Part shown: positions 1 to 6,937 of the stretch, piece after piece
Numbering within the stretch: position 1 is the stretch's first letter
Layout: each line of letters begins with the position of its first letter
Source: a virus
Lineage: Duplodnaviria > Heunggongvirae > Uroviricota > Caudoviricetes
IMG/VR virus record: IMGVR_UViG_648276648_000006
Direction: 5' to 3' (one strand)
Length of the DNA: 6,937 bases
Translations under genes and position numbers: made by a program
Notes under the pieces: generated by a model
The model's input: only the letters and a program-made list of their open reading frames with translations
Told to the model about the DNA's origin: nothing
Databases searched by the model: none

Positions 1-1
1 A

Positions 2-259
2 GCCGGATTACTGGCATCAACAGGGAGCACAGGCGACTCGTATGACAACGCGATGGCTGAGAGCATCAATGGTCTTTACAAAGCGGAGGTAATACACCGT
101 AAGAGCTGGAAAAACCGTGCAGAAGTGGAACTGGCCACACTCACGTGGGTGGACTGGTATAACAATCGACGATTGCTGGGAAGGCTGGGCCATACTCCTC
201 CGGCAGAAGCAGAAAAAGCTCATTATGCTTCCATCGGAAACAATGATCTGGCAGCCTGA
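2..259 (+). CDS. IS3-family transposase OrfB (DDE integrase core), C-terminal fragment; 5' end outside window
   Basis: Frame from position 2 translates to AGLLASTGSTGDSYDNAMAESINGLYKAEVIHRKSWKNRAEVELATLTWVDWYNNRRLLGRLGHTPPAEAEKAHYASIGNNDLAA, stop TGA at 257-259. The SYDNAMAESINGLYKAE...WYNNRRLLGRLGHTPPAEAE stretch is the conserved C-terminus of IS3-family (IS629-like) OrfB. Confidence 0.9.
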   Translation, partial: AGLLASTGSTGDSYDNAMAESINGLYKAEVIHRKSWKNRAEVELATLTWVDWYNNRRLLGRLGHTPPAEAEKAHYASIGNNDLAA

Positions 260-276
260 GTTCACAGATAAAACAC

Positions 277-301
277 TCTCCAGGAAAATCGGGGCGGTTC
301 A
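277..301 (+). repeat. Right terminal inverted repeat of the IS3-family element (approximate extent)
   Basis: Lies between the transposase stop (259) and the element terminus ...GGTTCA (301). The exact IR length cannot be set without the left end. Confidence 0.45.
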
Positions 302-868
302 GACGGCGATATTACAGCGACCGTAACCTTTGCCGGACTGGACTGGGAATCAAAGGCCGATGATACGAATTTTATCAAAGGCGAACCTGTGGATAGTGCA
401 GGAAAGCTACGTTATTCGTTTAAGGAGGTTTCAGCAGTAAGCCTGAATGGTGTTGCCGGAGGTAACGGTTTTTGTATCGACAGTTTTGATATTCAGTTCG
501 ATAACAAACTCCAGACACAGCGTTGTATCGGGACTGGCTCGCCTTATGCAGGAGCAAATATTCCGACTACTTTTACACCGTCCGGTACGGTGACGCTTTC
601 ATGGTCTAAAGCCGCGTGGGAAATCTGGAGTAAAACACTGACTGGAGAAACAGTTCCGTTCAGCTTCACGCTTTCGAATGGAGAGGGGGCATACACTTTC
701 AGTTTCCCGAAGGTTCAGGTGTCAGGTGAATGGCCTGATGGGGGTAATAGCGACATTATCCAGGTTCAATTGAGCATTACCGCAGCAGATGAAGCACCTA
801 CGATAACCAGAAAAAAAAATTCCCCGGCTGCCGTGATCGCAAAAGCCAGTGCTGAGGCGATTAGTTGA
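302..868 (+). pseudogene. Phage major tail (tube) protein gene, 3' portion only; 5' part displaced by the IS insertion
   Basis: Frame is open from the IS junction to TGA at 866-868 (internal GTG at 389 is the ORF-track start). Translation DGDITATVTFAGLDWESKADDTNFIKGEPVDSAGKLRYSFKEVSAV...FSFPKVQVSGEWPDGGNSDIIQVQLSITAADEAPTITRKK... is protein-like. It sits directly upstream of the G/G-T chaperone pair, where lambda-like phages place gene V. No native start or RBS exists downstream of the IS. The functional name is inferred from position, not from recognised sequence identity. Confidence 0.6.
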
Positions 869-916: not shown

Positions 917-1378
917 ATGAGGTTATGGATGTTTATTCTTAATCAGAAAATTATCATTGGTGGAGAACGCTGGTTTACGCCAATGAAGGACTTAAAACCT
1001 GTAGACGGGTTAAAACTGTTGGTGGCAAGCAGCGATAACGATCAGTATCGCTCCCGTAATGCATTAATCCGTCGCCACATTGAGAAAATGGATGCCAGTT
1101 TGCACGTCGGAACGAAGGAGTTTGATATTTCAAAGGTTTCCGAGGTGGATTCTGTTGATGATTTACTCATTGATAATGCCGCTCGTTATCTGCTGAAAGA
1201 CTGGAAAGGGGTTGGTGAACTGGTTAATGGTGTTGAGGTTGCACTGGAATATACGGCAGAACGAGGGATCGCGCTGCTCAAGCAGAATCCAGAGTTGTAC
1301 TGGCAGATCCTTGCAGAAGCAGCCAGCATCGCCCAGGGTAAAGAGCAGCAGAAGCAGGATACGATAAAAAAGCCATAG
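917..1378 (+). CDS. Tail assembly chaperone, gpG-like
   Basis: 153-codon ORF between the tail tube gene and the tape measure gene. GGGGGA at 903-908 is a Shine-Dalgarno 8 nt upstream of ATG 917 (alternative ATG at 929). Ends in a slippery heptamer followed by an open -1 frame, the hallmark of G/G-T chaperone pairs. Confidence 0.65.
   Translation: MRLWMFILNQKIIIGGERWFTPMKDLKPVDGLKLLVASSDNDQYRSRNALIRRHIEKMDASLHVGTKEFDISKVSEVDSVDDLLIDNAARYLLKDWKGVGELVNGVEVALEYTAERGIALLKQNPELYWQILAEAASIAQGKEQQKQDTIKKP
1366..1372 (+). promoter_or_regulatory. Candidate programmed -1 ribosomal frameshift site (slippery heptamer A_AAA_AAG)
   Basis: A AAA AAG in the G zero frame (codons AAA 1367-1369, AAG 1370-1372), 2 codons before the G stop (TAG 1376-1378). 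The -1 frame is open from 1342 to 1686. Confidence 0.6.
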
Positions 1379-1686
1379 CTGCCCAGCGGTGGTTATCGGA
1401 GTTCGGGGGAGAAAGGGGGGAAAAGGCAAGATGGAAGCGAGAAAAACTCAGGTTGCCACCGATACCGGAACCAGAAATAGACCCGGTGCTTAAGGAGTTG
1501 TTGTACGCCTATTCGGTAATATCCCGTGCCCGACGTTATGCTGGAATGGCTGGGGTGCCTTTGCCTTTATCTCTGACAGAGATAAATGAATATTTAGCCA
1601 CTCATCCGGTATTGATTGAGCGCGATGAATTTGAAGCAGTGATCTTTGCACTGGATGACCAGTATTTTCAGGAGCAGTGTGTGTAG
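1369..1686 (+). CDS. T-like extension of the tail assembly chaperone, expressed as a G-T fusion by -1 frameshifting (not independently initiated)
   Basis: The -1 frame relative to G reads ...AIAAQRWLSEFGGERGEKARWKREKLRLPPIPEPEIDPVLKELLYAYSVISRARRYAGMAGVPLPLSLTEINEYLATHPVLIERDEFEAVIFALDDQYFQEQCV, stop TAG 1684-1686. No ATG start: the ORF-track start at 1453 is TTG. Position immediately upstream of the tape measure gene matches the conserved G/G-T arrangement. Confidence 0.6.
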   Translation, partial: KAIAAQRWLSEFGGERGEKARWKREKLRLPPIPEPEIDPVLKELLYAYSVISRARRYAGMAGVPLPLSLTEINEYLATHPVLIERDEFEAVIFALDDQYFQEQCV

Positions 1687-1849: not shown

Positions 1850-4800
1850 ATGGCAGAGCAAACCTCGCGTCTCGCAATAATTATTGATAGCACTGGAGCA
1901 AAAAATAATGCTGACAATCTGACCTCCTCATTAGTCAAAATGACGCAGGCCGGGGAAACTGCTGCAAATAGCGCAGGGAAAGTGACTAAGGCAACAGAAG
2001 ATGAGAAGAACGCGCTCGCAAAATTAAAAGCAGCTATTGATCCAGTTGGTGCCGCAATTGATACTGTCGGTCGACGCTATTCTGAATTAAAGAAATTTTT
2101 CGATAAAGGGCTTATTGATAAAGAAGAATATGAATTTCTTGTCCGTAAACTTAATGAAACCACAGAGGAATTGAGCGGGGTTGCGCAAGCGCAGAGAGAA
2201 GCCGAGAAGGCCGGAAAACTTGCTGCCGCCCAGCAGGAATCGCAGGCTCAGGCCTTTCAAAGAATGCTGGACAAGATCGACCCTCTGGTTGCGGCGCTAA
2301 GAAATCTTGAACAACAGCAGGATGAACTTAATGCTGCGTTTGCATCCGGGAAAATAAATGGTTCTCAGTTTGAGAATTATAGCCGAAAAATACAGGAAAC
2401 ACGGCGAGAGCTTACCGGAGAGGCTCAGGCAGAGCGAGAAGCAGCAAAAGCGCATGATGAACAGGTTGCTGCTTTGCAACGTCTGATTGCTCAACTTGAC
2501 CCTGTCGGAACTGCTTTTAATCGTCTGGTAGAACAACAGAAACAGCTCAATGAAGCAAAAGCTAAGGGGATGCTCTCTCCTGAAATGTATGAGGAACTTT
2601 CTGGAAAACTTCGTGCTATGCGGAGTGAGCTTGAGGTTACTCAATCTCAATTAAGCAAAACCGGAATGTCGGCAAAACAAACGGCTTTTGCTATGCGCAT
2701 GTTGCCTGCACAAATGACGGATATTGTTGTTGGGTTGTCCACTGGTCAGTCGCCTTTTATGGTGTTAATGCAGCAGGGCGGCCAGCTAAAAGATATGTTC
2801 GGTGGGATTGGCCCGGCGATCAAAGGTGTTGGTTCTTATGTGCTGGGATTAATTAATCCTTTTACCCTGGCCGCAGCAGCCGTTGGCGTCTTAGGGCTGG
2901 CTTACTATAAAGGCTCTCAGGAGCAGGACGAATTTAATAAATCTCTTATTCTTACCGGAAATCAGTTGGGGACAACCAGCGGGCAATTGGCCGATATAGC
3001 TCAACGTGCCGGGAATGCGGCTGATTCGACAACTGGCGCTGCGGCGGCAGTATTAAACCAGCTTGTGCGTTCGGGAAAGGTAGCGAGCAGTTCGCTGGAG
3101 CAAGTGACGACAGCGATAGTAAAAACGAGCGAAGTAACAGGAATATCAACCGAACAACTGGTTAATGACTTCAATGAAATTGCAAAGGATCCTGTCAGTG
3201 CCATATCAAAACTTAATGATCAGTACCATTTTCTGACAATTGCGACTTATAACCAGATTAAGGCGCTACAGGATGAAGGGAACCAGCAGGAGGCCGCCCG
3301 CATTGCGACAGAAGCATACTCATCCTCAATGATCCAGCGCACCAACCAGATTAAAGAAAATCTTGGTTATCTTGAGACTGCATGGAAAGCTGTCGCAGAC
3401 TCCGCAAAATGGGCATGGGATTCCATGCTGGATATTGGCCGTGAGGCCTCCCTTGATCAAAAAATCTCAGATGTTCTCCGTCAAATTGATGAAATAGAAA
3501 AAAATACCCGACCCGGAGTTTTCGGGTTAGGTGGCATTGGAGATGGCGGAGCTCAAAATAAAAGGCTGGCACGATTAAAGCAGCAATTGGGCGTACTTCA
3601 AGCAGAAAAAATTGCTCAGGACGTACTAAATTCATCAATAAACGATTACAACAAGCGACAACAGGAAGGAATTGAACTCAGACAGAGAGCAGATGCCTTT
3701 TCAAAACAATATCAGACCCGGGAGCAGCAGAGAGCTAGTGAACTTGCAAAACTGGAAAAACTAAAGAGTCAGTATTCAAAGGAAGAATATAATAATCTTA
3801 TCGCTCAAATAAATGAGCGTTATAAAGATCCAAAGCAACCAAAGGCGAAAGGTTATTCGGATGATGCTGCCCAACGAATGATTGATCATCTGAATCAACA
3901 GAATGCGTTACTAAGTTCACAAACTGAATTAACCGTTAAATTAAGTTCCTCTGAACAGGAACTGGTTAAGTGGCGTCAGCAGATTGCCGACCTGGAGTCA
4001 CGACCGTCATCGAAATTAACCAAGGATCAGAAATCGCTTCTCTTACACCGGGAAGAAATAACCGCGTTGATGGAGAAAAATGTTGCGATTGAAAAAAATA
4101 ACAGGCTAATCAAGGAATCCGCCGAAATAGCTGCATGGCGTGATTCATTGCAGGCTTCGATTGATAATCGTCAACAGGGGTATGATATTCAGATTGCTGG
4201 TTATGGGGTTGGCGATAAAAATCAGCAACGCCAGCAGGAATTACTGCGGATTGAACGTGAATATAACAATCAGCGTCTGCAACTTGAACGTGACTATGCA
4301 GATAAATCCCGTGGGATGTCAAATCATGTTTTTCAGGAGAAAATGCAGGCTCTGAATGATGCTCTGGAACGAGAAAAAGAAATTGTCAGACAGAAAAACG
4401 AGCAGCTCGATATTCAGGCAGGAGACTGGGTTAGTGGTGCCTCCCAGGGATTCAATAACTGGCTGGATGACACTAAGGATATCAGTGAGCAGATAAAATC
4501 AACCACGACTCAGATGTTTGATGGAATGACCGATGCGCTGGGTGATTTTGTCACGACAGGCAAGGCAAATTTTCGTTCTTTCGCTACTTCCGTGATTTCG
4601 GATCTTAGTCGAATAGCATTAAAGGCTTCAATTACTCGGATTTTCGACAGCATTAGTAACAGTTCTTCGGGGGGGATTTTAGGAACTATCGGGAGTGCTA
4701 TTAGTAAATTTATTCCGAATGCAAAGGGCGGTGTTTATGAGTCTCCGTCATTGAACACGTATTCGAACGGTATTTATGATTCCCCGCAATTTTTTGCTTT

Positions 4801-5083: not shown

Positions 5084-5408
5084 TACGGAAGAATTTCACT
5101 GGTTACCAGAGGATGGAATGAAAACAGAAAATAAACCATCGATAAAAACTGTAAGATTTGGCGATGGTTATGAGCAACGAAGTCCAAATGGACTTAATCA
5201 TTCTCTGCGCGTTTTCACCTGTGATTTCAAAGTTGAGGCGAATGAACGTGATTCATTTGAAAAATTTTTAGCCCGGCATGAAGGCTATAAATCTTTTTTT
5301 GGCGCCCGCCTGGTATTAACAGAAAAATCAGAGTGGTGTGTCGAACGTGGTCAGCGACAGAACATATCACCTATACCGATTTTTCGTGTCAGTTTGACGA
5401 AGTGGTGA
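5076..5408 (+). CDS. M: Minor tail protein M (lambda gpM family), reading frame disrupted near the 3' end by an apparent 1-nt deletion in a T7 run
   Basis: GTG 5076 follows an in-frame TAA and overlaps the H stop by 8 nt. N-terminal part ...[35 protein letters not shown]...[14 protein letters not shown] matches lambda gpM (FRWKVKPGM...VRKVRFGDGYSQRAPAGLN...FLEEHGGWKSF). After the T-run at 5294-5300 the gpM-like C-terminus ([39 protein letters not shown]) is in the other frame and stops at TGA 5411-5413. Confidence 0.85.
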
Positions 5409-5412
5409 TCTG

Positions 5413-6860: not shown

Positions 6861-6937
6861 AAACGGGGCCGAAGCCATCCGGGCGCTGGCCATGCAGATC
6901 CCGGCGTTTCGTCAGAAACTGAGCGATGGCTGGTATC
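6758..6937 (+). CDS. I: Tail assembly protein I (lambda gpI family), N-terminal part; frame disrupted at a G4 run; 3' end outside window
   Basis: ATG 6758 gives MAATHTLPLASPGMARICLYGDLQRFGRRIDLRVKTG, matching the lambda gpI N-terminus, and overlaps K by 103 nt. After GGGG at 6865-6868 the gpI-like sequence AEAIRALAMQIPAFRQKLSDGWY continues in the +1 frame, while the starting frame hits TGA at 6920-6922. Confidence 0.85.

Follow-up and report, generated by a model that had tools for sequence, protein, structure and literature searches.

The length of the tape measure protein (TMP) of a phage sets the length of its tail, and Katsura and Hendrix are said to have found in 1984 that changing the length of this protein in lambda alters the tail proportionally. 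The lambda tail consists of 32 tube rings and contains its TMP, gpH, as a trimer with the C-terminus in the tail tip (PMC10721106), and the T1 tail has ~34 rings of 42 Å (PMC11945409). In the TMPs of TP901-1, the lactococcal phage p2 and mycobacteriophages, tandem repeats of 11 or 18 amino acids (aa) are marked by Trp or Phe and may, as has been proposed, ease changes of length in nature (PMC5099701, PMC3271669). Deletion or duplication of a TMP segment in TP901-1 alters tail length proportionally (PMC5099701), and the length rule, tandem repeats in TMPs and repeat-eased length change are all published already (PMC5099701; PMC3271669; PMC13585406). Here, we analysed a stretch of 6,937 nucleotides (nt; hereafter the window) from the virus record IMGVR_UViG_648276648_000006 (Caudoviricetes), which carries a gene for a TMP of 1077 aa. 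Residues 53-281 of this protein are three tandem, ancient and diverged copies of a module of 73-80 aa. Our preferred reading, to which we assign a probability of roughly 0.75, is that the three-unit array lengthens the ruler in modular fashion at its head-proximal end, with units gained and lost over evolution. The gene would accordingly encode a tail-length ruler composed of a 52-residue head, three helical modules and a lambda-type TMP_2 domain, in which each unit would add 73-80 residues.

Hidden Markov models (HMMs) placed the units at residues 53-124 (with a linker to 132), 133-205 and 206-279, adjoining at 132/133 and 205/206 and spanning nt 2006-2692. The original prediction had located three coiled-coil repeats of ~70 aa at nt 2015-2690; this location holds, with slightly wider limits, and the motif positions given at residues 56 (nt 2015), 136 and 209 are correct. 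Pairwise protein identity among the three units is 27-37%. Their local BLOSUM62 scores of 118 (units 1 and 2), 85 (units 1 and 3) and 97 (units 2 and 3) were compared with 2000 composition-preserving shuffles as a null, which gave a background of 26-29 ± 5 and thus z-scores of 16.8, 11.6 and 14.6, respectively. None of the 2000 shuffles attained an observed score, and the alignments run collinearly for 54-69 residues and contain no more than one gap. As a non-circular test, HMMs were built from orthologues of a single unit type (u1, u2 or u3) in other genera, leaving the window sequence aside. Each of them detected the other two units in the window TMP with independent E-values of 8e-8 to 4e-16. 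The predicted tandem repeats are thus confirmed.

An Asp-Pro near the start and a Gly in the middle of the unit are invariant in 15 of 15 units from diverse relatives. Hydrophobic residues show a periodicity that peaks at 3.50 residues over positions 53-281 (z = 11), and this heptad signal was not seen in the central part of the TMP. We modelled residues 1-300 as a monomer with AlphaFold (mean predicted local distance difference test score, pLDDT, 62; predicted template modelling score, pTM, 0.31). Confidence is low in the head, while parts of units 2 and 3 reach a pLDDT of 80-89. The modelled region is all-helical, and DSSP assigned helix throughout residues 50-271 except for short breaks at the Asp-Pro positions 64, 144 and 217 and at Gly turns at 86-90, 167-170 and 239-243. 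In the model, each unit opens with a short helix that starts from the Asp-Pro; a turn at the Gly leads into a long helix, which is followed by a linker rich in Ala, Glu and Gln (G-x-AQA-x-REA-x-KA). As the helices break at the Asp-Pro and Gly of every unit, they point to a helix-turn-helix array instead of one continuous coil, and the conservation of both breaks likewise argues against an uninterrupted coiled coil. The coiled-coil character that had been expected for the repeats was therefore found as helix and heptad periodicity, but not as a continuous coil. The model is too uncertain to be suited to fold assignment; a Foldseek search of the PDB with it had no match at E <= 0.001 and returned generic helical bundles only. 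Pfam and NCBIfam scans of the units yielded only sub-threshold matches to SHOCT, TMP_3 and SMC/Rad50, and in a profile search of the PDB with the unit, T1 gp38 was the sole relevant match, with the unit region unresolved in that structure.

Like the window TMP, lambda gpH (853 aa; PDB 8iyk, 8iyl, 8k35) has the TMP_2 and Tape_meas_lam_C architecture, and its gene also sits between the G/T chaperone genes and M/L. In contrast to the window TMP, gpH has neither the N-terminal head nor an N-terminal unit and is 224 aa shorter; the G, T and V genes of lambda are unrelated to their window counterparts. Residues 57-850 of gpH align collinearly to residues 270-1077 of the window TMP (28% identity, BLASTP E 1e-78), and the first part of the window protein to align is the tail of unit 3. 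Since the alignment starts only at residue 270, the N-terminal extension supplies 213 of the 224 extra residues, in agreement with the original prediction, which had ascribed the difference in size (1077 versus 853 aa) to an expansion of the repeats. The later position of the MRMLPAQ motif is also as predicted, at residue 282 (nt 2693) compared to residue 69 in gpH. The TMP of T1, gp38 (957 aa; PDB 9l9p), is homologous to the window TMP as well (E 1.3e-56) and contains one diverged unit at residues 68-136 (16 bits), before its PAQ motif at residue 212. It differs from the window TMP in its N-terminus, and T1 has other chaperone and tube genes.

The repeats of the TP901-1 type resemble the window array in being tandem repeats within a helical ruler. 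The window unit differs from them in its length of 73-80 aa, its heptad sub-structure and its N-terminal position before the hydrophobic TMP_2 domain, and an 11- or 18-residue aromatic periodicity was absent from the units, the central region and the whole protein (z = -0.7 to 0.6). The core of the unit (Q.ELN.A...G.I....Y) is weakly matched within gpH at residues 410-441 (independent E-value 1.4e-4 with an HMM of three units and 1.4e-3 with one of 15 units) and within the window TMP at residues 627-657 (0.025 and 0.3, respectively). The N-terminal units may derive from an internal TMP segment or share a motif with it.

Copy number was compared among full-length genes from GTDB genomes and viral contigs. 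As the initial homologue search gave only proteins of at most 494 aa, full-length TMPs were taken from fetched loci. Relatives with the shared N-terminal head have one, two, three or four units, and their PAQ motif lies 132, 205, 285 or 365 aa from the start, respectively. Total TMP length is 951-997 aa with one unit, 1073 aa with two, 1069-1141 aa with three and 1127 aa with four units (locus L020); another four-unit TMP of 1237 aa (L010) has an unmatched PAQ motif and is outside this distance series. The units are positional orthologues across Citrobacter, Rosenbergiella and Raoultella, with 59-81% identity to the same unit type in other genera versus 20-35% to the other units. In four-unit forms the extra unit is of the u2 type, and two-unit forms have a chimeric unit, with the head of u1 and the linker tail of u2, followed directly by u3. 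This chimera reads as the signature of an in-register deletion of one unit, or of the reverse. In a scan of viral contigs the best 80 matches were all three-unit forms and thus uninformative on variation.

In an exhaustive profile search of 1.84 billion cluster representatives, 589 clusters proved to carry the unit. The listed proteins include 110 with a length of 800 aa or more, and 108 of these had at least one stringent unit copy: 65 had one, 20 two, 14 three, five four and two five copies, with one protein each at six and ten. P0057, with five copies, is a TMP of the TMP_2 type; P0056, with its ten copies, belongs to another TMP type (PhageMin_Tail). In 74 TMP_2-type representatives, total TMP length followed 838 + 0.97 x the N-terminal length (r = 0.78), and the lengths of the N- and C-terminal parts were uncorrelated (rho = -0.02), which indicates that added units lengthen the TMP without compensation. 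A shrinking of the C-terminal part with added units, hinted at in close relatives, was unsupported in this set. The alignment with related TMPs thus showed that repeat number varies by whole units, and gain or loss of repeats as a way to vary length, as the original prediction had suggested, is supported by comparison, with one to four units in relatives and up to five in the TMP_2-type family. Whole units would have been gained and lost in register over evolutionary time, leaving relatives with one, two, three, four or five of them.

Observed here were the repeats with their helices and heptads, as well as the series of copy numbers and how it changes the length of the protein; the tail length of the window phage, in contrast, was extrapolated at 1.49-1.6 Å per residue, equal to 26.7-28.1 aa per ring. 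On this scale the window TMP predicts a tail of roughly 160-172 nm with 38-40 rings (lambda 32), to which each unit would contribute ~11-12 nm or 2.6-3 tail-tube rings. A measured comparison is offered by the Klebsiella phage Kpn_R1, an isolated phage with a tail of 178.3 nm by transmission electron microscopy (TEM; bioRxiv 10.1101/2025.03.05.641587). Its TMP (PQ800145, 1141 aa) has the same head, three units at residues 53-124, 134-205 and 207-279 and the PAQ motif at residue 285, and is 63% identical to the window TMP over residues 1-737. It differs in a longer C-terminal part (857 versus 793 aa) and in its tip-proximal C-terminal region. The rise per residue is 1.56 Å in Kpn_R1, which agrees with lambda and with T1 (1.49 Å in the latter); without a contribution from the 213-residue extension, the Kpn_R1 tail would be expected to measure ~143 nm. 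The tail of 178.3 nm in a phage with the same three units therefore indirectly supports the prediction of a longer tail. Records of vB_EcoS phages with the identical gene were set aside as a source of tail length; these are computationally extracted prophages without electron microscopy.

Several points weigh against the preferred reading. The Kpn_R1 length is a single TEM value from the figure legend of a preprint, probably including the tail tip, and the genome record of this phage is marked UNVERIFIED. T1 has 104 residues more than lambda and only ~2 rings more, which leaves room for units that count below the full helical rise. Should the units fold back into hairpins within the tube, their contribution would be below 1.5 Å per residue, and that Asp-Pro and Gly are so strictly conserved suggests that the unit has a defined fold or a binding partner and is not a free spacer. 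In addition, the AlphaFold model is of the low confidence given above, and the statistics on copy number and length were obtained on cluster representatives, which are not phylogenetically independent.

Of the other roles considered, docking is the one that fares best, though we regard it as unlikely. The units would mainly dock the G/GT chaperones (YdaY type) or tube or terminator proteins, with length as a by-product and copy number reflecting chaperone load. The gene neighbourhood is in line with such a role. In the loci L005-L022, compared with the window, the tube gene, G, T and the first 52 TMP residues travel together across genera and copy numbers. These parts are co-conserved at 47-79% identity in loci of all copy-number classes (the head alone at 49-75%), while the C-terminal part of the TMP and the M/L genes are swapped between the same loci. 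The head and the array of u1 to u3 are missing from lambda and T1, whose G/T and tube genes are unrelated, and residues 1-52 had no match in lambda gpH or T1 gp38. The invariant Asp-Pro and Gly point to a particular fold or interface, and an interaction between chaperones and TMP repeats has been proposed for lactococcal phages (PMC5099701). However, linkage of adjacent genes can explain the co-conservation as well, and the lengths of G and T are unchanged whether the TMP has one or four units. Moreover, docking is compatible with a ruler role and does not exclude it. As the genes on the head side are co-conserved and those on the tip side exchanged, the TMP gene spans a joint between a head-proximal and a tip module, and the repeat units belong to the former.

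Considerably less probable is a function after ejection, in which the array would be a SHOCT-like oligomerising or host-interacting segment that aids passage of DNA across the envelope and varies in response to host or defence. The core of the unit resembles the SHOCT and DUF1707 families (PF09851, PF08044) in the pattern L..L....G.I...E[FY]...K..L, and unit 1 matches positions 5-27 of the 28 profile positions. In the window TMP this match is below the curated cut-off (21 bits for unit 1 and 21.9 bits for the whole 281-residue N-terminal region, compared to 27), and units 2 and 3 had no SHOCT match in the Pfam scan. The multi-unit proteins P0051, P0063 and P0120 exceed the SHOCT/DUF1707 Pfam threshold on summed score. 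Unlike in SHOCT proteins, the motif of the window TMP does not lie at the C-terminus and forms part of a unit that is much longer, and the likeness is best taken as resemblance and not as membership. Mutants of the T1-like phage Bas14 that escape the SNIPE defence map to TMP residues 100-150 (bioRxiv 10.1101/2025.11.03.685801), where T1 has its own unit at 68-136; this overlap is judged by residue position only. The N-terminal region of the window TMP contains no hydrophobic or membrane segment, which speaks against a role in crossing the envelope. The unit profile also picks up non-TMP proteins through the SHOCT-like core, among them P0120 (1368 aa) with many SHOCT motifs. A further match, P0087 (3481 aa, 24 matched stretches), was rejected as a TMP and taken for a look-alike in the core motif, as it belongs to the LPXTG surface proteins of Gram-positive bacteria and has 26 GA-like domains.

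That the similarity of the units is a mere by-product of coiled-coil or low-complexity composition, as the richness of the region in A, E, K, L and Q and its weak matches to SMC/Rad50 coiled-coil regions and many unrelated helical Pfam families could suggest, is refuted to the point of being negligible by the shuffled scores, by collinear alignments with Asp-Pro and Gly at fixed positions, by the cross-detection with independent HMMs and by relatives that differ by exactly one unit.

Beyond the modular ruler extension preferred here, it may be speculated, with more doubt than confidence, that the unit is no passive spacer and instead a discrete uncurated module consisting of a SHOCT-like core and a linker. 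It would be co-inherited with the tube and chaperone genes, serve specifically in docking or oligomerisation and set tail length in quanta of 2.6-3 rings; lying head-proximally beside the DNA end, it would also be exposed to host factors or TMP-sensing defences at injection. Thousands of records annotate the window protein as a TMP. The 73-80-aa unit is not covered by any Pfam or NCBIfam model, and no description of the unit and its copy series was found in the literature searched. An N-terminal unit of this size with a clean series of one to five copies in TMP_2-type rulers thus seems to be uncurated and undescribed, in what is otherwise a real but fairly ordinary instance of the known ruler principle. 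The copy series in otherwise related tails offers a system for testing whether a ruler counts residues or structural quanta. Together with a measured three-unit phage, it would also allow one to ask whether the ruler has a second job at its head-proximal end, for example to dock chaperones or to be exposed to host defences. The practical value is modest and lies in TMP annotation and in the prediction of tail length from sequence.

The pace of unit gain and loss is slow. A direct-repeat search found no in-register direct repeats in the TMP gene, Tandem Repeats Finder reported nothing in it, and an alignment of the unit DNA gave in-register identities of 42-51%. As these three approaches showed no DNA-level repeat, a reading of the array as a slippage-prone contingency locus was rejected. 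Of the 1072 E. coli genomes with the repeat segment, 1063 match it over its full length, the sampled rows show no indel, and copy number looks fixed at three in E. coli. The lack of DNA-level repeats and the uniform copy number in E. coli indicate that unit gain and loss belong to long-term phage evolution and do not act as a switch. Full-length copies of the TMP gene are present in 693 of 5426 complete E. coli genomes, and roughly one in five complete E. coli genomes has the repeat unit, that of K-12 with its remnant ynaA among them. This Rac remnant is 98.7% identical to the first 935 nt of the window gene and encodes the head and all three units; unlike the window gene, it is truncated after ~312 codons and dead. 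A divergent TMP N-terminus in NZ_LS992185.1 (H142; 2327486-2327977) is 76% identical, with 32% of the query matched within a span of 492 nt, and may represent a single-unit form inside E. coli.

The features of the window are listed in Table 1. By its domains and context, the 1077-aa open reading frame (ORF) is assigned as the TMP gene of a Rac-type lambdoid E. coli prophage. The original prediction had called it a tape measure gene from the letters alone, and the matches to TMP_2, TMP_4, Tape_meas_lam_C and TIGR01541 uphold this, as does the collinearity with lambda gpH (PDB 8iyk, E 3e-70). The TMP_2 profile PF06791 is covered entirely, with 274 bits compared to a cut-off of 30.2, TIGR01541 scores 218.9 bits (cut-off 104.75) over residues 705-1040, and the ORF also matches PHROG 24. 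The protein and its gene are 100% identical to WP_000840627.1 and its gene in E. coli FDAARGOS_1058, where the prophage with this TMP combines P22-like head genes with a lambda-like tail. Downstream of the tube gene follow the G-like ORF, the T frame and the TMP gene, and then genes with Phage_min_tail, Phage_tail_L and JAB plus NlpC/P60 domains (M, L and K). The gene thus lies where a lambda-type TMP gene is placed, after the tube gene and the frameshift-joined chaperone genes and before M, L and K.

Table 1 Features of the window with their positions in nucleotides. Residue numbers (aa) refer to the tail's tape measure protein (TMP).
Feature	Position (nt)	Strand	Basis or remarks
IS3-family insertion sequence (IS) element end	1-301		transposase C-terminal fragment, ORF 53-259, rve_3/rve_2
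Tail tube gene, 3' two-thirds	302..868	+	Phage_tube_2 covers only profile positions 161-266
Tail assembly chaperone pair	917..1686	+	PHROG 313 and 1189; Phage_TAC_18
G-like ORF (YdaY type)	917-1378	+	
T ORF, reached by -1 frameshift	1453-1686	+	
TMP gene, 1077 aa	1850..5083	+	ORF; Pfam, PHROG 24, TIGR01541, DNA match
Conserved N-terminal head of TMP, aa 1-52	1850..2005	+	alignment; locus comparison
Repeat unit 1 (u1 type), aa 53-132, 80 aa	2006..2245	+	linker 7 aa longer than that of unit 2
Repeat unit 2 (u2 type), aa 133-205, 73 aa	2246..2464	+	
Repeat unit 3 (u3 type), aa 206-281, 76 aa	2465..2692	+	tail runs into TMP_2
TMP_2 domain (PF06791), aa 267-471, MRMLPAQ at residue 282 inside	2648..3262	+	Pfam 274 bits
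TMP_4 domain (PF24622), aa 671-748	3860..4093	+	Pfam 86 bits
Tape_meas_lam_C domain (PF09718), aa 858-932, tip-proximal part of the protein	4421..4645	+	Pfam 89.6 bits

Within the chaperone pair, a canonical -1 slippery heptamer (A AAA AAG) is located at 1366-1372, 4 nt before the stop of the G-like ORF, and the -1 frame behind it is open to 1686, into the T ORF. Together, the heptamer and the open frame predict a G-T fusion chaperone as in lambda. An 11-nt tandem repeat (GGGGGAGAAAG, two copies) lies at 1405-1426 in the linker of this fusion. The stretch that separates the chaperone genes from the TMP start codon contains, at 1810-1832, a terminator-like hairpin (CCCAC-TTCG-GTGGG with a T-run behind it). 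At the corresponding position, a terminator is annotated in T1 (L108 19508-19527). The hairpin may serve as a conserved site of attenuation upstream of the ruler gene. A 117-aa antisense ORF at 2297-2650 overlaps the repeat region and had no family match, and an Rfam scan of the window found nothing.

In this genome, the prophage is probably tail-defective. The IS3 element interrupts the tube gene, as position 302 of the window corresponds to position 10453 of the locus L001, within the tube coding sequence (10057-11019). It is nt 397 of this 963-nt coding sequence, the first 396 nt of which are displaced. Compared to the otherwise 100% identical L001, a single-base deletion in a T-run at 5294 causes a frameshift that replaces the last 36 residues of gene M, and a second single-base deletion at 6865 falls within the tail assembly gene I. 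Both deletions could be real decay or homopolymer assembly errors. With the tube gene interrupted by the element and single-base deletions in genes M and I, the prophage is unlikely to make tails.

Finally, the G+C content climbs from 0.43-0.45 to 0.57-0.59 around 5250-5410, at the boundary of M and L. Gene L is 94% identical to lambda L, whereas the TMP is only 28% identical to gpH. The M/L boundary therefore looks like a mosaic recombination joint, at which a Rac-type tail region would be connected to a lambda-type tail tip.

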